Below are positions 26,206 to 63,733 of a stretch of 64,000 nucleotides of DNA, piece by piece. Each line of letters begins with the position of its first letter. Within the stretch, counting starts at the first letter, position 1. Under the pieces are notes generated by a model, which had not been told where the DNA came from, did no database searches, and saw only the letters and a program-made list of their open reading frames with translations. The DNA is from Lama glama. Lineage: Eukaryota. The position numbers and the translations under genes are program-made. The stretch spans positions 29,080,001 to 29,144,000 of the forward strand of contig CM052816.1 of assembly GCA_028534125.1 (NCBI GenBank), read 5' to 3'.

Positions 26206-26896
26206 GCTGAAATACTTTGATTTAAAGCATCCCAGAATTTCTATTTTTTGTACAAATCATTATGCAAGATAAAAATACTTTAGAGGGATAATTTAAAGTA
26301 CATAAAGCCCAAATTATGAAATAATATCAAATAATTATGAAATGATATCAAACATGTGACATTCAATATAGTTAACTTGAGGAAAAGAATTTAACCCAAA
26401 TTTATTCCAGCTAATTCTGGGGGAGAAATTAATTATGACAAGCAATTAAAAACATATTATTTAATAATCTTTCCAAAAAGCACACTACATAAATAATACC
26501 TGGAGTATGGTTCCACTTATTATAAAATGAAACAGACCTTTATGACTACATTTGATTCAAATTGCAATGAAAAAAAAGTCCACTAAACTATATGCCAAAC
26601 TATTGACAGTGGTTATATATAAGGATATCAGTGGGCAGGAAAGGGGGGTTACATATGCCAAAAGTCAGCTGATCATGGGGAAGTGAAGGGTAAGTGGGTA
26701 AGCGATAAAGGCAATACTAGCTTTTTGTTCTATACAATTCTGTATTGCCTGAATTTTTATAGTAAGAATTATTCATGCCTCATTTATTTAAATAAGACAC
26801 ACTTTAAATAAAAAGGATTCTAGGTTCACATCCCAGAATCCACATTCCATCAAAGATTCTGCTTAAATAACATCATAAACATACTAAATGGGCTGG

Positions 26897-29800
26897 AGTG
26901 GTCAAGATAGCTTAATAGGAGGACCCTGAGCTCATCTTGTCCCATGTGCACACCAAAATTACAGCTATTTACAGAGTAACTGTTGATGAAAAAGGCTGGA
27001 CAACTAGAAGAAAAGCTTTTCTACTACAGAAGATATAAAGAAGGAACCACAACAAGGCAGGTAGGAGGGGAAGAGTTGTGGCATAGCCCATACCTGTACC
27101 CCCAGGTGGATGACCCACAAATGGGAGGATAATTATAATTGCAGAGGTTCTCTCTGAGGAGTGAGGGGTCCAAGCCCCAAGCTGGCCCCCCCAACCCAGG
27201 GGTCCTGCACCAGGAAGACAAGACCCCAGAACATTTGTCTTTGAAGGCCAGTGAGGCTCACTTTCAGGAGAGCCAGAGGGCTATGGGAAATAGAGATTTC
27301 ACTCTTAAAGGGCGCACACAAAATCTCACACACTGTGGAACCCAGAGCAGAAACAATAATATGAAAGTAACCTGAGAGAGACCTACCTGCTCACCTTGGA
27401 GAGCCTCCCAGAGAGGCAGGAGGCCACCAGTGTTCACACTGGGGAAAGAGAAATTGTTTTTGGAAGCTTGTTCTATCACGAGGACATTGGTGCTGGCAAG
27501 TGACATTTGGGAATCCTCCTTCTAGCTTCTTAGGGCAGATACCCAGCTCTGCCCAGCAGCCTGTGGACACCACAGTACCGGCATGCCACAGGCCAAGCAG
27601 CTAGCTGGAAGGGACACAGTCTCACTCGCCAGCAAGCCAACTTCCTTAAGACCCCCTGAGCTCACAGCCAATCCAAGACCTGGTTGTGCCCATCGGAGGG
27701 CCCAGAACCTGGTCCCATGCACCAGTGTGCCAGCACTCAGCCCAGGACCTCCTGGAACCCCAAAACCAGGTGTTGGGATCTGGCTCCTTCAACCAGCAGG
27801 CTGAAACCAACTCCAAGACCCCTGGAAACCTGCAGCCAAAGACTCCAGGACCCAGTTCAGCCCCTCAGTGGGCCAGCACTAGCCCCAGGACCAGCCTTAC
27901 CCATCAGTGGGAAGGCACCAGACCAAGGACAACCTAGGACCCAGCCCCACCCACCAGGAAGCTGACACCAGCTGCAGGATCCCTAAGTGTTGCAGCCAGA
28001 GACACCAGGACATGATTCCACTCACCAGGAGGCAGGCACCAGCACCAGAACCACCTCAGCCCTACAGCCTGAGCTGCAGGACCAAGCCAACCCACCAGAA
28101 GGTTGGCACCACCCAGGACCCCTTACGCACTGGTGCTGCCCACCAGCAGGCCAACACCAGCTCTAGAATATTTTGAGTCCCACTAGAATATTTTGAGTCC
28201 CACAGCCAGCTGCCCTGGGATCCAGGCCTAGTCACCAGCAGGTCAACACCAGATTTGAGACACTCCAAACTGCATACCATAGTCAGCCATGTCATAAACC
28301 ATCCCCACCCACCAGCAGGGCAAAACTAGATCCAGGACCCCCAAACCTACGACTACCCACCCCAAACCTAGCTCCAGCCACCATTGGCCAAAACTAGCTC
28401 CAGAACCCCCCAGGAATCTGCAGTCAGCTACTCATACTTTTCCCTATCCAAAAGCAAACAGCAGCCTCTAAACAAGGCAGGTTCTGGCAACCAACCAAAC
28501 AAGGGACCAGCCACGCCTACTGGACCACCCTCTGCATGAGCCCATCACAAAGGAAGGACTCATGCAGCCCACACTGGGGGCACCCCTAGCACAGCTATAG
28601 CTCTGGTGATGAAAGGGGAGTGTACTGCTGGGGTGCACAGGACATCTCCTACAAAAGGCTACTTCTCCAAAGTAAGGAAATACAAACAGCCTATCAAATA
28701 CATAGAAAGAAAAACAGCACGTTAGGCAAAATGAAGCAACAGAGGAATATGTTCCAAAGAAACAAGATAAAAGCCCAGAAGAATATCTAAGTTAAGTGGA
28801 GATAAACAACCTACCTGATAAAGAGTTCAAGGTATTAATGGGAGAGATGATCAAAGAACTCGAGAATAGATTAGATGAACAGAGTGAGAAGTTAGAAGCT
28901 TTAACAAAGAGTAAGAAAATATTAAGAACAACCACAGATGAAGCCTACAATAACTGAAATAAAAAATACACTAGAAGGAATTAACAGACTAGCTGACACA
29001 GAGGAATGGATCAGGGAGCTGGAAGACAGAAGAGTAGAAATTACTGAAGCTGAACAGAAAAAATAATAAAGAATAAAAAGAAATGAAGACAGTTTAAGAG
29101 ACATCCAGGACAATGCCCAGCCCAACAACATTTACACTATAGGGGTCCCAGAGGGAGAAGAAAGAGTGAAAGGGGCAGAGAACATATTTGAAGACATAAT
29201 GGCTGAAAACTTCCATTGCTTCCATTTGGGAAAGGAAATGGACATCCAGGTCTAAGAAGCACAGAGAGTCCCAAACAGGATCTACCCAAAGAGGACACCA
29301 AGACATGTTGTAATTAAAATGGCAAAAATTAGACATAAAAAAGAATACTTAAAAAGGGGGGGGGTGAACAAATTACACAGAAGGGAATTCACATAAGGCT
29401 GTCAGCTGACTTTTCAGGAGAAACTCTACAGGCCAGAAGAGAGTGGCATGATATATCTGAAGTGGAGAAAGGAAAAACCTACAACCAAGCATACTCTAGC
29501 AGGCTTTTATTCAGATATGGAGAGACCAAAATACAGATAGGCAAAATACAGATAGGCAAAGCTAAAAAGAGTTCAGGACCACCAAACCAGCTTTACAAGA
29601 AATGTTAAAGCGACTTCTCTGAGTGGAAAAGAAAAGAGCACAACTAGAAATACGAAAATTACAAAAGGAAAAGTCTCATTGGTACAGGCAAATATATAGT
29701 GAAGGTAGTAGATCAAACATAAATAAAGGTAGTAGGAAGGTTAAAAGACAGAAGTAGTAAAATCAGCTTTATCCATAATAAGTAGTAAAGGGATAAAGAA

Positions 29801-30883
29801 AAGAAAAAGATGTAAAATGATGTCAAATAGTAAACATGGCACGGGACTACAAATGCAGGATTGTGAAAATGGTTTGAACTTAAGAGATCAGAAACTTAAA
29901 ACAGTCATAGATAAACAGACAGACAGACTGATTTCCGTATTTAAACCTCATGGTAACAACAAATAAAAAATCTATAGTAGAGGCACATACAAAAAAGGGA
30001 AAGGACACTGAACATAATACTGAAAAACAGTCATCAAAACACAAGGGAAGAAAGCAAAAGAAGAAGGAAGGAACAAAAAAGAACTATAAAAATAAACCCC
30101 CCAAAATTTATGAAATGGCAATAAATACATACTTACCAGTAACTAATGTAAATGAACTAAAAGCTCCAATCAAAAGACAGAGAGTGGTTAAATAGATAAA
30201 CAAGACTCATAGATATGCTACCAAAAAGAAATTCACTTCAGATCTAAAGACACACAAAACTGAAAGTAAGAAGATGGTAGAAGGTATTTCATGCAAATGG
30301 AAATCAAAAGAGAGCTGGGGTAGCAATACTCATATCAGATAAAATAGACTTTAAAACTAAGACTGTCACAAGAGACAAAGAACAACATTACTAAACAATC
30401 AAGGGATCAATTCAAGAAGATAAAACAATTGTAAATATTCTTGCACAAACATAGGAGCACCTAAAAACATTAAGCAAATATTAAGAAATATAAAGGGAGA
30501 AATTAACAGTAACACAATTATAGTAGGGGATGTTAACACCCCACTTACATCGATGGACATATCATCTAGACAGAAAATCAATGAGGAAACACTACCCTTG
30601 AATAACACATTAGACCAGTTGGACTATACATATATATAATATATTATATATATATGTAAAATATTCCATCCCAAAGCAGCAAATCTCAGTAAATTTAAGA
30701 AAATGGAAATAATATCAAGCATTCAACCATAATGCTATAAGACTAGAAATCGACTATAAGAAAAAGAAACTGCAAAAAAAACACAAACACATGGAGGCTA
30801 AACAATACACTGCTGAACAGCCAATGGATCACTGAAGAAATCAAAGAAGAAATTTAAAAAATACCTAGAGACAAATGAAAATG
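26897..30883 (+). mobile_element. L1 (L1MA/L1M3-type) with 5' UTR, decayed ORF1 and ORF2 endonuclease region; 3'-truncated
   Basis: 5' start 'gtcaagatagcttaataggaggaccctgagctc'; GC-rich repeated 5' UTR units about 27660-28450; ORF1 from about 28730 ('aaaatgaagcaacagaggaatatgttcc'); ORF2 start at about 30115 ('atggcaataaatacatac', then ...NVNELKAPIKRQRV); ends at 'gagacaaatgaaaatg'. Many stops and frameshifts. Confidence 0.92.
27660..28450 (+). repeat. Degenerate GC-rich tandem units in the L1 5' UTR
   Basis: Recurrent 'ctgcagccagagac(a/t)ccaggac...cccaccagcaggccaacaccagct' units; perfect 20-bp tandem duplication 'ctagaatattttgagtccca' at 28163-28202. Confidence 0.8.
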
Positions 30884-30889
30884 GACTGG

Positions 30890-31560
30890 TTTTCAGATTG
30901 AAGAATTAACCTATAGAAATGAACAAGATTAATTATGGTTATAGAATAAACTGTAAATGTTTCCAATATGAGAAATGTAAAGGTAGAGGTATAGTTGTCA
31001 GAAATTGAGCTATGGAAAGAGCAACATGTTTAAAAAAAAGTGAGCAGCTCAAAAACATCTGTCTTACAGAGCAGGGATTCAAAGGAGGCTACTAAAAGTG
31101 GATGCAAAAAATACACAGATGTATAAAAAACAGATAGATGGATATGATTGGAAGCTAGAAGATGAAACAAAAGAATGTTTCTATATATGATTACTTAGAA
31201 GAAATGGGAAGAAGAAAAAAAAGGAACAAAGAGGTAGGAGTTGAGCAAGAGAGATAAATTCTCACCCTTAGGAACGTAGGTGATGTCAGTAGCTATTCTC
31301 TAAAGATCACAAATGAAAAAAATTAAGGAAGAAGCATATTATTTAGAATTATGGAAGTAATGACCAGAAGAACAAAAAACAAACAAAATAAAGTGGTTGT
31401 ATTTAGTAAGTAAGACTGGGGTGGGGATAGGATGGAGTAAGGGCTAAAATCTTGTTCATTATAAACTATTCTGTCTTCTTTATTTTTTAACGTAGAAATA
31501 TTTCTCTGATAAAAATAAAACTTTAATGACTTTAAAGAGAACGTTTTAAAATAAATTTTA
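30890..31560 (+). mobile_element. Old L1 (L1MC/ME-type) remnant
   Basis: A-rich decayed L1-like text, 'atttagaattatggaagtaatgaccagaagaac'. Confidence 0.5.
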
Positions 31561-32230: not shown

Positions 32231-32349
32231 TATCTCTACTTCCATCTCTATTAGAGATAATTAATGATAACAAGAATAAGAGCAGCAGAAACAACAAAAA
32301 GAACAACCATCCCAACATATCTGCTAGGTACATTCTCAAAATAATAGGG

Positions 32350-32830
32350 TGTGATGGTTAATTTTTTATGTCAACTTGATTGGCCAAAGCACATCCATAT
32401 TAAATATTATTTGTGGGTGTCTGTAGGAGTGTTTTCAGATGAGCTTGGCATCTGATGGACTCCAGAAGTCCAATGCGCTATCCACTGCACCACGGAGCCA
32501 CCTGGCATTTGATGGACTCAATGAAGTAGGCTGTCCACCCCTGTGTGGGTGGGCATTATCCAATCATTTCAGGGCCTAAATAGAACAAAAGGCAGAGGAA
32601 GAACAAATTTGCTCCATTTTCCCCACCTCGTTGATTAAGCTGGGTTATCTCATCTTTTTTTGGCCTTTGGATTGGGATTTATACCACTGACTACCCTAGT
32701 TCTAAGGGCTTTGGACTGAAATCTACCACAAGCTTTTCTAGAGACCCAGGAGATGAGAATTTGTTGGATCTTGGGACTCAGCCTCCATCATCACGTAAAC
32801 AATTCCTTATAATAAATCTCCTTTTCTTCC
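32350..32830 (+). mobile_element. MLT2-type (ERVL) LTR
   Basis: Start 'tgtgatggttaattttttatgtcaacttgattggcc'; 'gtgggtgggcattatccaatc...gggcctaaatagaacaaaaggcagagg'; 'ctcagcctccatcatcacgtaaacaattccttataataaatct'. Confidence 0.9.
32463..32499 (-). pseudogene. tRNA-Arg(TCT) 5'-half retropseudogene (nt 1-37)
   Basis: Reverse complement GGCTCCGTGGTGCAGTGGATAGCGCATTGGACTTCTG versus recalled mammalian tRNA-Arg-TCT GGCTCCGTGGCGCAATGGATAGCGCATTGGACTTCTA (34/37), anticodon TCT at 34-36. Flanked by 17-bp direct repeats at 32446-32462 and 32503-32519. Confidence 0.9.
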
Positions 32831-37080: not shown

Positions 37081-38077
37081 TGAAGAAAATATTTGCAATG
37101 TGTGCACAGCAAACAAAAGATTTCCATATAAAGAGCTCACACAAATCTTATTTATAAACATAAACAATGCAAAAGAATATGAATAGGCAATTCACAGAAG
37201 CACATAGGCCAATAAACATATGAAAATATGTTCAGTCTTCAGTATAACTGGGGAAATACAAATTAAAACAATGGAATATTGTTTTTATCTATGAGACTGA
37301 CAAATACAAATAAAGATTGAAATACCCATCATAAAAAGGGATACAGAGAAATGAGTACTTTCATTAACTATTCAGAAAGAAAGAGGGTCTATAGTCATAT
37401 ATTTAGGCATTCTCATTAAGGTACAAACAAGACAAAGATACACACTATCATCAATACTATTCAAAATTGTTCTGGAAGTCCTAAACAATGTAATAAGACT
37501 AGAAAAAAGACCAAGTGTCAATATTGGACACATAATTTCTATATGTTTCACTTGCATATGATACCATTTTCCACCTAGAAAAGTCAGGATGATCAAGTAT
37601 TCTAATTAGTAAGAGCTTAGTGAGGTAGCCATATATAAGGTAAATATGCAAAAAAATTCAGCCTTTCTTGTATTTCAGAAATAATTAGAAATTATAATGA
37701 GAAAAACTCCATCGCCAAAAGCAACGGAAGTCACTATAACACACAGAAAAAATTATAAGAAAAAATATGCAAAGCCTCATGAAAAACAAACTATAAAAAT
37801 GTACTTATAGACATTAAGAAGAAAATCTAGATAAATAACACAAAGGCAAAAACATGTTTACAGATGTTTACAAAAGATTTCCACATAAAGAGCTCACACA
37901 AATCTCATTTATCACTGTTTGGGTAGCAAAAAACAAAACTGGAAATGATGTCTATCTATAGGAAATACAGTTTGCATTGTGATATATCAACACAATGAAT
38001 CCTCTTTAAAAAAACAAATAAAACAAACAAACAAAAAACCCCAAACAAACAAAAACTATGTAAAAAGAATGAGATAG

Positions 38078-56185: not shown

Positions 56186-56859
56186 TTAGTTTTCAATATA
56201 AATCATTAAAAGTTTTTCATAGATGATCTACAATCTTTCTTTAGAATATATGGTCCTGAACACTTTGTCCTCAGTGTCAGAATCCAAATTACAATGAAAG
56301 CCATGAAAAAATAGTACTCAGCATTCTGCTACACCTCAGTTAGCTTCTTTGACTAATCAAAATTCATCCCTAGTGCTGCGAAGAGCCAGCCTTTCCAGAG
56401 CCCGTGGCCACCAAGACTGGAACAAAATGAGAGTCTGGTAGCAAAGAAGAAGGATGAAAGGGAGGGTTGGGTAGGCAGCCGGGAGTGTCTACCACAGGGA
56501 AGGGTTTACTGGTGGCTTTGAAAGAAAACTCTCCTCTAGACAAACTGAACTAGAACACAGAACTCTCCAAGCCAATTCCTAATCATATTTAGTAGCCAAA
56601 TTATAAATAGCCTTAGTCATGTGTAAAATCAACATTTAGTGCACAGACATAGAAAGAAGTCTGTTACTCTACGCATCTCTTCCTGACTTTTTGGCCTTCT
56701 TCTGCTTTTTCCCCCTTTAAATTCTTTTAACTTTCCACAGTTTAAGATGGAAGAGGAAAAGGAAAAAGAAAAAGGAGAAGCTTCTGACAAGTCTGTGTTA
56801 TCTGTGAAACATCAGTTCTTATCTATCAGAGATCATAAAAAGCAAGAAGCCACTGTAAG

Positions 56860-58780: not shown

Positions 58781-59559
58781 TGTCTTGAGTTGTGCTGGAT
58801 TTTCTGGTATGCATATCAAATTTTCAGGCAAAATTATTTCTAAAACTAAACAAAGACTATCAAAAATCCAAAAGCTGTGCATTATATATCCTTCTACATC
58901 CGAGCACAGAGGCACATTTCTCACCACTTAGAAAATAACTAAAGAAAACTAGAATAATTTCACAAAAAATATTTAACTTTGAAATATCAACCAAGTCAAT
59001 CCCTGTAAAAGTGACAAGTTTGTGTCTATAGTTCAAGTTAAAAGGATCTGGTAACACTCCACTTTTCTCTCCCAGACAAATTAAATCATTCTGAATAAGC
59101 ATGCAGTACTTTCTTAGCTAAATGAAACCACTTGTGCCTGCATTGCAATTTTACTGATTGGCACACATATGAAACAGAGACTGAAAAACAAATGTTTTGC
59201 AAGGATGTTTACTGTTTGCACAAAAACACCCACTCTTACTAAGAATGCATAATTTGGACCTAAAAGTTTCCCCTAGAAAACTTTGAAAAATGCTTTCATT
59301 TAATCAATCTTCCTACATATTTTTCTAATTACTTGGGACAGCTGCATGAAAATATGTTCTCTAATTTAGCTATTCATCTCCTTAATAACCATAACTGAGT
59401 ATTAGCATTATAATTTCCTGAATAATGTTCATTAGATTCTCCGCTAATGACGTCAACGCCTGTTTTATATTTTTCCTGAAGCCCTCACTCCCTTAAGGAC
59501 CATCCTCCATCTTGCTATTGTTTGTAACCATATGCAGTGGAACTCTTGTTTGTTTCCTT

Positions 59560-60108
59560 TTCAGTTTTGCTTTGTTTGCCTATCCTATTCATAGCTCATT
59601 CTTCTGTTATCAAGTCCCAGTTTTCTTTTGGGCAAACTCCCTTCCCCACACCCTCAGTCCTTGTGGTCTGGGTTAGTGAAAAAGACTCCACCCTAAGCTC
59701 TAAAAACCTGCTAAGTTAGATCACTGTATCACCTGACTGTAGTGTTCAATTCACAAAGGAATAACGAACCAAGGAATAATTCACAAGAATCAGGCTGGAG
59801 TCCGGTGGAAACCCTTAGAAAAGGTGCTCTCTTTCTACTAGGGTTGGTAAACAGACAGAATATAACTTAGATGCTTCTGGAGGGGAGCCTACCTGTAGAG
59901 GAAACAAAAAAGCAGAACAAGAGGTGGAGAAACAAGAGATTTCTGGCACAACTCCTTGTTTACCTGCATTCAGAGATAACTTCTCTGGATTTTTAATTAT
60001 GTAGGCCAGTACTTTTCTAATTCAGCAAATTTGTAAGTTAATAAATACTCTCCTTTTTGTGATTAAATTAGTTTGAATTGCTTTTCTGTCCCTTGCCAGT
60101 GAAAAGAT
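59560..60108 (+). mobile_element. Old MLT1-type MaLR LTR
   Basis: End 'aataaatactctcctttttg...tagtttgaattgcttttctgtcccttgccagtgaaaaga'. Confidence 0.6.
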
Positions 60109-60924
60109 TTGTACCTGGTATGCCATGGAGCACTGCATGCTCTTCAACTGCCTTCCTTTCTGCCCAAAGACCCGTGTTGCCCTGGCCTCCTCTCTGCTCT
60201 GCAGCTGTCACAAGGAAGTCTCTTTCAGGGGCCAATACACAACCTTAATTTACAAAGTCAAGAAACACTTTTGGGCTTTATTCTAATTTCCCTCTACATT
60301 TCTCTACCTACCAGTGCGCTGTGCAGTGTCATTTTTAAAATGTTCATTTACTGCTCCATCCCTGAATGCAATTCAATTCCTTCTGCTTCTTTCATATTTC
60401 CCAAAACAGGCTTTAAAGTTTTAAATTATTTCAAATAGTCAGAAACACAGTAAAACATAGAAATAATTCACAACAGACATTTAAATGAATAAGGTCACTA
60501 ATGAGGGCTTTGAGATACATATTCCATAAACTGGTGATCCTGAAATAGACAAAGTGGCCAGTATATATTGAGGAGCATTTAGAAGGCCCCCACTGCACCA
60601 CCTCATTGCTTATCCTACTTCCTGTGAAATCATCATTAATAATTTCACCATTTGAGTTTTTTTAAAAAGTGAGCTGGGCAATGGTGACATTGCCCATGTT
60701 TTGCACACTAAAAATCTATATTTATGGCATGCTATCCATGATTCTATCCATGGGAAAAAACAGAAAAGAAAATATGAAAGTGTAAGTATCCTAGAAAATC
60801 CACTCCTGTTGGACTTCAAAAGATACCACCATTCAGTTCCATGTTGCACATGAATAAAACTTTCATTTTGCATGACTAACATACCTTTAGAAGACCTCAA
60901 TTTTTCTACTAGAAGTTATAAAAA

Positions 60925-62131
60925 ACTGGAATAGGACTTGAAATAAATTGCTCTGCCTTGCTCAAAAAAACCCAGAACTGATGTGTGTAAATTTTCCAAG
61001 CTTCATTTTCTTCATCAAGTTTGTTGACAAGGGACATTATATTATTTCTGATTTTTATCTCACTATTCAGAAAGGATGATCGAAGTGGCCTTAATAATAG
61101 ATCAGTCTCATTAATAAAACTTCTGCTCTACTCCAATTTACATGAACTTCATTATGAAAAGTAATTGGCCACACTTCTGCTCTACTCCAATTTACATGAA
61201 CTTCATTATGAAAAGTAATTGGTTCACTGATTGTGGGAGTCAGTGAACACTGAATACAAAAGCTCAGGGAGATTTAAGAGGAAGGCCCGATTCAAGGTTA
61301 TGTATGTTGTAAAAAAAATAAATAAAAAAGCTGAGTGGTCCTCAGAGTGGGGGAAAATAAAGTTGGGTCTATTTAAAAATCACTCAACCTGAAATTAAGC
61401 TTTAAATTTCGAATAAATAAATGTCTTGCTGGACAGAAAAATCTAGGGCCCCAAACCCAATGGACACAAGAAAATAATTTTGTGACCATGTTACTGTCAG
61501 ACATCAATGTCATAGTAATTGAAACCTGGTTACTGGCTGATTTGACTCTCCCTCCTCTTGTATCACCTTGTTCCAATCATGCATCTAAGGTGACTGTCAG
61601 AGCTGGGGAGTGATGACAAGGGCCCCCATCGCATCTGTGATACACAGTTAAAGATTTTCATTTCATGTGCAATATTGAACAGATCTTTTAAGTGAATGAA
61701 ATCACTGGAGATCTCAGCTTCCATACAACATTCCTGAAGGCCAGTTGGGAGGGGGCTGGGCTACAAATTTTGAAGGAGCAAAGGATAAGATTATAAGATA
61801 ATACTAGTACTTCATCGTCCCCAATTGTATTACTGAAAAGAGATGGCGAACAACCTTCAGAATTCCCTCTAGTTGAGAGCGTACAAATCAGAAAGCTGTA
61901 TGCACTCTTTTGCTTATGTAAATTGGAGTAGAGCAGACGTTTTATTAATGAGACTGATCTATTATTAAGGCTGCTTCGATCATCCTTTCTGAATAGTAAG
62001 ATAAAAGTCAGAAATAATATAATGTCCCTTGTCAACAGGTTTGATGAAGAAAATGAAGCTTGGAAAATTTACACACATCATTTTTTTTTTTTGAGCAAGG
62101 CAGAGCAATTTATTTCAGGTCATATTCCAGT
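60925..62131. repeat. Long inverted repeat: arms 60925-61143 and 61916-62131, 772-bp spacer
   Basis: Manual alignment of the left arm to the reverse complement of the right arm gives 10 substitutions plus one altered A-tract over ~217 bp. Confidence 0.95.
61119..61222 (+). repeat. Perfect 50-bp tandem duplication with 4-bp spacer
   Basis: 'acttctgctctactccaatttacatgaacttcattatgaaaagtaattgg' at 61119-61168 and 61173-61222, separated by 'ccac'. Confidence 0.95.
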
Positions 62132-63733
62132 AGTAAGGCTCAGTGATGTACGTTTTGCCCTCATATTCTGAGACTGGAAATTGAGAAATTTGCATATATC
62201 AGGTATTATAATCAGGACAGATTCTGAAGCTATTAAGAAGGTCTAGGAACTCAGGGTTCCACATTTACATATGTGTGTATAACTATTTTTATATATGCAT
62301 GCAGATTATTCAAATCTGACCAAAAATAACACTTTGTAGAAGGCTCTCTCTTCCAACAATCCAAATTCTATCCAATCCTAAATCCCTGTTCAAGGTCTAC
62401 CTTCTCTGTGGTCTTCCCTAATAAATCCAGCCCACACTCTTCCTCCTCTCTCAAATCTAACTTCTACCACCATCACACATTCACTGAGTACTTACTGAAG
62501 TGCAGGACCTTATTCCTGAAGTCATCAGGCTGTTTCTTAGCTTGAAATAGTTTAAAGCTAGCTGTGAAGACAAGATGCAGACACGACAAAGTGTAAACAA
62601 CAGCCCACAGTTACTGTGGCTCACGGGGCAAGTGAACACAGAATGTGGAGGAGGATGGGCTCCCAATAGCTGGGTCAGGCAGAGGCAGGAAGAGTTTATG
62701 AAGGAGGCAAGTTCAAGTTTGTTCTTGAAGAAAGGTCCCTCTCATAAGGCCAGAGTGAAAGAGGAAGTCCTGGCAGCATGAACAAGATGTGGAGGCAGAG
62801 ATGGACCAACCTAGGACAGACGGGAAGCCTTAAGGGAAGCTCACATGTTCTCTTCATCTGTGGGTTTATCCATCACTAAAGGTGCAGCACCTGTGCTCCA
62901 GGTCAATCTCACTAACCAAAGAGAGAAAGAAATGCTATAGTGTATACTAAAATAATTTTATTTAGGTAGCATTATGTCAGCTGAGGGGGGCTTAAGAGGG
63001 ATTCGAGGAGGTGAGCTGCCCAACCGGAAAAATGTGCGAGGGGCCTCCAAGCCACAAAACAGACCACACGTGGAGGAGCCCACATGGAGCAAAACAGCAT
63101 TTTATTCTAGTTCAACAAGATGGCATGCGCCCACGTGGCACACTTGTCCTGTTTTTATCTTTTCTGTCCACACATGCATATTGTTCATTTCTTTGTTCAT
63201 AACGCTTACAAAACGCTACTAGTGCATGTGTACATTTACTTCTTTGTTCATAATGCTTACATAACTGGCGCGTGCGTACATCTACTTCTTACCTCATACA
63301 CAGGCGAGTTGTTGTGACCTTTGACCTGGGTCCCACAGCCTACTCACTTAAGGCTGTCGACACATTAGCAAGACAGAAAAAGATGCCAGACTAGTATCCA
63401 CACTGACTGGGGTCCAGTTTTGCTGGCTGTCTAAATTTGGGCCACAAGCTCAATAACAATAAGTCGTTAACTCTCAAATTTGAGGAAGGAGACTTTCATT
63501 TATGAACCATAACACAAACAGTAAAAAAGGGAATAAATTTTCCTTTAAAGTCACAATTGAATTTGAAATCCCCAGCGGGGATGAACTAAAGCAACATAAA
63601 AACATAAATGAGACCTACTCACAAGCGCTAGTTACTTCCTCTTAACCATTAAGGAAAACACGCGTAGATTCACAAAGTTTTATGCTTTGCTAAGAGATAC
63701 TCCGCAGAAACCTGGTTTCCCTTCTAACAGCCC

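Follow-up and report, generated by a model that had tools for sequence, protein, structure and literature searches.

The window analyzed here, namely the whole stretch of 64,000 nucleotides of Lama glama DNA, contains a pair of inverted arms separated by a unique, non-coding spacer (Table 1). In global alignment, the left arm pairs with the right arm's reverse complement over 219 columns, of which 204 are identical, 12 are mismatched and 3 are gapped. In the self-BLAST of the 64 kb, this inverted pair (93.15% identity, E 3e-89) stood far ahead of every other non-self match. The altered A-tract accounts for two of the mismatches and the gap, and the remaining arm differences are ten substitutions. 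Eight of these are transitions, and the other two would appear as A-G and C-U mismatches in plus-strand RNA. Both analyses bore out the inverted repeat that the original prediction had placed here, with its coordinates, ten substitutions and one altered A-tract, and the predicted 772-bp spacer measured 772 nt. The suspicion of a decayed CpG was also correct, as the pair at 61086-87/61972-73 is one CpG that has decayed in both arms. The description of the arms as "near-perfect" was too strong, since their identity is about 95% once the A-tract is excluded, and no stretch of identity is longer than 40 nt.

Table 1. Positions of the inverted arms and of the features in and around them within the 64-kb window
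Feature	Position	Strand	Description
Left arm	60925..61143	+	219 nt
Right arm	61916..62131	-	216 nt; reverse complement of left arm, 93% identity
Spacer	61144..61915	.	772 nt; unique, non-coding
Interrupted A-tract, left arm	60972..60978	+	Right-arm counterpart is an uninterrupted 12-nt T-tract
Three adjacent transitions between arms	61019..61021	+	Partners at 62038-62040
Perfect 50-nt tandem duplication	61119..61222	+	Copies 61119-61168 and 61173-61222; period 54; 4-nt joint
Perfect 9-bp hairpin, 9-nt loop	61222..61248	.	Begins where the tandem duplication ends
10/13 near-match to sequence across the outer end of the right arm	60903..60915	+	10 nt outside left arm

The arms have sharp boundaries. 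Their outer flanks (600 nt) share no inverted homology with each other (22 of 200 shuffles reach the observed score), and the bases immediately outside the two arms differ when flanks of 2, 3, 4, 8 and 9 nt are compared at the defined ends. No flanking direct repeat of 5-15 nt was found at the outer ends at the offsets tested, in agreement with the original prediction that no TSD lies outside the arms. A run of five A stands just outside the left arm with no accompanying TSD, and the altered A-tract sits inside the arm. The two halves of the spacer have no inverted homology to each other (135 of 200 shuffles reach the observed score). A sensitive nhmmer search with the arm, the spacer and both flanks against the 64 kb gave no older copies of any of them in the window; the only other matches to the arm were its partial tandem copy (E 0.31) and one at chance level (E 0.4). 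A 30-nt pattern common to both arms had 0 matches in metagenome contigs. Moreover, we found no publication on this locus in a limited literature search, which is not proof of absence.

The window looks non-coding. Rfam gave 0 matches at the gathering threshold and ARAGORN gave 0 tRNA genes in the 64 kb, and none of 117 candidate exons had a Pfam match at the cut-off, with one weak match at E 0.013. These exons, picked with splice scores from approximate frequencies, lay outside 60850-62200. The longest stop-free frame overlapping the element has 126 codons, and stop-free frames overlap the right arm at 61688-62068 (minus) and 61932-62171 (plus). A candidate exon at 56741-56854 (+) holds an open frame of 38 codons, with GTAAGT as its donor and a pyrimidine tract at its acceptor; it had no Pfam match and is possibly a chance or non-coding feature. 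Relics resembling L1, L2 and LTR elements were picked out by eye in the window, including a decayed L1-like element at 26880-31300 (+) with a long 5' region, relics of ORF1 and ORF2 and a truncated 3' side.

The strand on which a host transcript would run was judged from base composition. The G+T content of the plus strand is 0.473 over 47,977 nt (repeats masked by eye) and lies below 0.5 in 21 of 23 blocks. In mammals, G+T excess is reported to mark the coding or the leading strand (PMC2839347), so the deficit on the plus strand suggests that a host transcript, if any, is more likely on the minus strand, and replication could explain the skew as well. Most of the L1-like relics lie on the plus strand, which is consistent with a minus-strand host transcript. 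Going by the gene order of human 5q, the window may correspond roughly to the 5q23 region, in the opposite orientation. Its minus strand would in that case presumably carry large introns of, for example, SNCAIP or SNX24, and this setting agrees with the base skew.

The tandem duplication and the hairpin listed in Table 1 are absent from the original prediction and were found here. The duplication straddles the junction of the left arm and the spacer, and the inner 25 nt of the arm thereby gain a second copy (61173-61197). The hairpin that begins at its end is one of the five with at least three G/C in the stem among the 15 hairpins listed for the window, and the chance that such a hairpin starts within 5 nt of a given point is about 0.001 (post hoc). 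It is a possible polymerase pause site. Another of those five lies 230 nt upstream of the left arm, at 60675-60696; its GC-rich stem of 9 bp is perfect and its loop has 4 nt. For the near-match, the chance is 0.0075 in 25 offsets, likewise post hoc, and this match may be a scar of microhomology or slippage. Tandem duplication, hairpin and near-match are read jointly as slippage scars, with the post hoc nature of these probabilities in mind. An attempt to obtain the polarity of the duplication from junction microhomology failed, as the near-match fits either arm as the copy.

The two arms have diverged by about 5%, i.e. 4.9% over 204 sites or 4.7% over the 212 columns outside the A-tract. For dating, we assumed that each site changes at a rate of either 2.2e-9 or 1.5e-9 per year. 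Under these rates the ten substitutions would correspond to 11 (5-21) Myr or 16 (8-30) Myr, respectively, and to 8 (3-16) or 11 (5-24) Myr with clusters counted as single events, which suggests that the duplication dates to very roughly 3-30 Myr. The split between Old World and New World camels is placed at about 16.3 Ma (PMC12337305); the age range straddles it and thus cannot tell whether one or both tribes carry the duplication. The transition share of eight in ten does not depart from a two-thirds expectation (p = 0.51). The substitutions exceed random clustering, with P = 0.017 (post hoc) for a run of three among the ten and 0.006 for at least three adjacencies, and the differences, taken as events, are spread evenly across the arms. 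A microinversion as the source of the three adjacent transitions does not fit on a by-eye check, and no local template for them was seen by eye. The eight transitions, the CpG decayed in both arms and the changed homopolymer together make a pattern like that of germline mutation.

From the structure, its sharp ends, the scars and the divergence pattern, all of which are observed directly, we infer that the pair probably arose by a neutral template switch, and we hold this reading of mechanism, age and neutrality with good confidence. The clustering of the substitutions counts against it. A single local replication or repair error would have copied about 217 nt, in reverse, to a place about 770 nt away: the polymerase would quit its template, copy the opposite strand for a stretch and then return, as in a FoSTeS/MMBIR-like switch. 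By one route, a short inverted copy would be pasted in and the spacer would keep its orientation, as in an "Inverted Dup". By the other, one 3-1-2-4 event or a staggered-break inversion would duplicate the arm and flip the spacer. Slippage, in this event or in one that followed, would account for the 50-nt tandem duplication and for the near-match beside the left arm, and the arms would since have diverged neutrally by about 5%. The two routes yield the same product; without an outgroup they are inseparable, and neither arm can be called the copy. As to the orientation of the spacer, its GC skew is +0.08 against -0.15 to -0.17 in the left flank, but its G+T content of 0.488 lies inside the spread of the window (0.467, sd 0.037).

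This origin has close parallels in published data. In the 1000 Genomes SV map (PMC4617611), 54% of 229 validated human inversion sites are reported to be inverted duplications, nearly all shorter than 1 kb and no more than 5 kb from the other copy, and the cause given for this "Inverted Dup" type is replication errors, typically not retrotransposition. The present pair falls into the same size class (216-219 nt) and the same spacing class (772 nt) with the copies in opposite orientation, and it shares with that type the absence of retrotransposition hallmarks and the extra complexity at the junction. However, the human cases are polymorphisms defined against a copy-free allele, whereas the arms described here are non-human, about 5% diverged and known as a structure from one sequence. 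Loytynoja and Goldman (PMC5453318) describe single template-switch events that create inverted repeats with or without an inverted spacer, and their 3-2-1-4 and 3-1-2-4 types likewise lead in one event to an inverted repeat whose spacer is unchanged or inverted. The events illustrated there span tens of bases, whereas the copied fragment here would be about 217 nt or about 990 nt, and switch points of these types are not assignable at this locus without the ancestral sequence. The fragment of about 1 kb that the spacer-flipping route needs is far longer than those illustrated events, which argues against this route. The microinversions dealt with in PMC8755829 (17-33 nt) are of a different scale from the present locus. 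The sharp ends, the local junction scars and the "Inverted Dup" geometry therefore favor the template-switch half of the original prediction, which had proposed either a lineage-specific fold-back or template-switch duplication or an older pair homogenised by gene conversion.

The second half of that proposal found no support. An older, pre-camelid inverted pair might have been kept alike by gene conversion or because its spacer inverted repeatedly, and conversion would bias the age estimate toward too young a value. In humans, inverted repeats more than 90% identical that flank a unique spacer, as the arms do here, mediate recurrent NAHR inversions (PMC6748972); however, the mediating repeats reported there measure from 654 bp to 24.2 kb, which is at least three times the length of the present arms. 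Moreover, the longest identical run of 40 nt compares with 64 nt expected, and only 3.7% of simulations had one that short, so there is no sign of recent conversion, nor does homology extend in decayed form past the arms. We therefore regard an older pair as unlikely. The arms might instead be the long TIRs of a non-autonomous DNA transposon of the MITE-like, Mutator/foldback or IR/DR Tc1 type. Long-TIR elements share an overall shape like that of this 1.2-kb element with its inverted ends of about 215 nt. DNA transposon and MITE families do exist in camelid genomes, yet the last activity of mammalian DNA transposons has long been held to lie at least 40 Myr ago, and a divergence of 5% would be young for them (PMC8605555). 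Together with the differing 2-9 nt just outside the arms, the absence of a TSD of 5-15 nt at the tested offsets, the absence of a second copy from the 64 kb and the lack of any reading frame longer than 126 codons, this makes a transposon a very remote explanation. An assembly artefact, be it a chimera made by fold-back or an inverted joining of two alleles, is more remote still. Fifteen of the 24 listed sequencing runs, all DNA-type and drawn from three organisms (A, B and C) and six studies, hold 0.91-0.95 of the words of 59500-63000, which indicates that the locus is common to three close taxa; the small shares of rows X18-X20 and the lack of any in rows X21-X24 were counted as no evidence. 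Loss of the second arm would remove just 6.6% of the 31-mers, so these word shares are blind to that arm and leave room for an artefact. However, the arms of a chimera are identical or carry errors of the indel type, and divergence between alleles is far below 5%. The arms are about 5% apart with a transition bias and CpG decay, and these differences, being of the germline mutation pattern, themselves make an artefact unlikely.

The two arms could pair as RNA, and a capacity for duplex formation is automatic for any inverted copy. The predicted energy of the arm duplex is -334.8 kcal/mol on the plus strand and -321.2 kcal/mol on the minus strand, with uninterrupted helices of 82 and 59 bp on the former and of at most 40 bp on the latter. 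Folding is predicted on either strand, and the duplex of more than 200 bp foreseen in the original prediction for a transcribed locus would be an imperfect one of roughly 200 bp. A host pre-mRNA or lncRNA, if one crosses the locus, would fold into this duplex, and light editing might follow as a side effect, as in a great many inverted pairs within introns. At an intronic locus, incidental editing at a low level would be plausible and would not imply function. Inverted matches are abundant in pre-mRNAs: across 49 species, 57.5 million of them are reported, a number near that of the direct controls, 61.3 million (PMC7006430). Barak et al. (PMC7006430) treat inverted duplicated sequences (IDS) in pre-mRNA as putative dsRNA, and the present pair resembles them in that its arms, an intramolecular inverted match of well over 40 bp, are pairable if transcribed; however, the rare and most strongly depleted class of IDS is defined there by more than 300 bp and more than 96% identity, and 219 bp with 93.15% misses both thresholds.

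A further alternative is that the duplex has been selected as RNA, serving as an ADAR substrate, a splicing modulator or a source of small RNAs, with G-U changes tolerated on the plus strand. We confirmed the count behind this idea: seven of the eight transitions would pair as G-U and one as A-C in plus-strand RNA, and the reverse (seven A-C and one G-U) holds in minus-strand RNA. The more stable plus-strand duplex with its longer helices points the same way, as do the shares of the words of 59500-63000 in two RNA runs of one study, 0.27 and 0.21, which are blind to strand, origin, expression level and DNA carry-over. However, the G-U excess is not significant, with a two-sided p of 0.07 (0.035 one-sided with all eight sites taken as independent) and, with clustered or adjacent changes counted as single events, four of five and p = 0.375, so the G-U argument is weak. 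In addition, A>G and C>T are reported to be neutrally elevated on coding strands (PMC2839347); a G-U pair on the plus strand always arises by one of these two on that strand, and the bias is therefore expected neutrally if the plus strand is coding. If the minus strand is transcribed, as the base skew favors, the seven G-U pairs become A-C mismatches and the argument vanishes. Moreover, among 197 human pairs that are longer and nearly perfect (more than 300 bp, more than 96%), only 20 are reported with both arms above FPKM 0.01 (PMC7006430), and in the oocytes of 12 vertebrate species endo-siRNAs were reported as mouse-specific (PMC10964541). Selection of the duplex as RNA is accordingly quite improbable in our judgement. 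The fuller version of this idea, a camelid-specific and repeat-independent RNA stem of 200 bp that was born by template switching and kept pairable on a plus-strand transcript, with the clustered and G-U-biased changes as the mark that selection, or mutation under pairing, left on a duplex that is edited or regulates splicing, has a slighter chance again. If a plus-strand transcript with editing and conserved pairing were true, the locus would be a clean functional long dsRNA with a one-step origin from unique sequence, and it is our impression that the camelid lineage is little studied for dsRNA biology. As the neutral scar of a template switch, which we prefer, the pair would be one further fixed case of the commonest small inversion-type variant and would matter little; at most it could serve to mark and date a lineage, and as a place at which the arms are collapsed by variant callers and by assemblers of short reads.

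Other features were noticed in the window. Within an LTR-like relic, a minus-strand insert of roughly 40 nt lies inside 32446-32519, between the two copies of a 17-nt direct repeat (32446-32462 and 32503-32519) that differ at one position. It resembles what we take to be a tRNA 5' half, tRNA-Arg-like, and looks like a tailless retrocopy made by L1. Neither ARAGORN nor Rfam detected it, and when 32300-32700 was scanned against Rfam by E-value, the sole match was at chance level. In an old L1-like relic, a direct duplication of 43 nt (37113-37155 and 37870-37912; 95% identity, 757 nt apart) is another short local duplication of a scale similar to that of the inverted pair. The stretch at 62940-63370 is the CpG-richest of the window, is LTR-like by eye and has an internal 31-nt direct repeat at 63184/63235; it is probably a young solo LTR.
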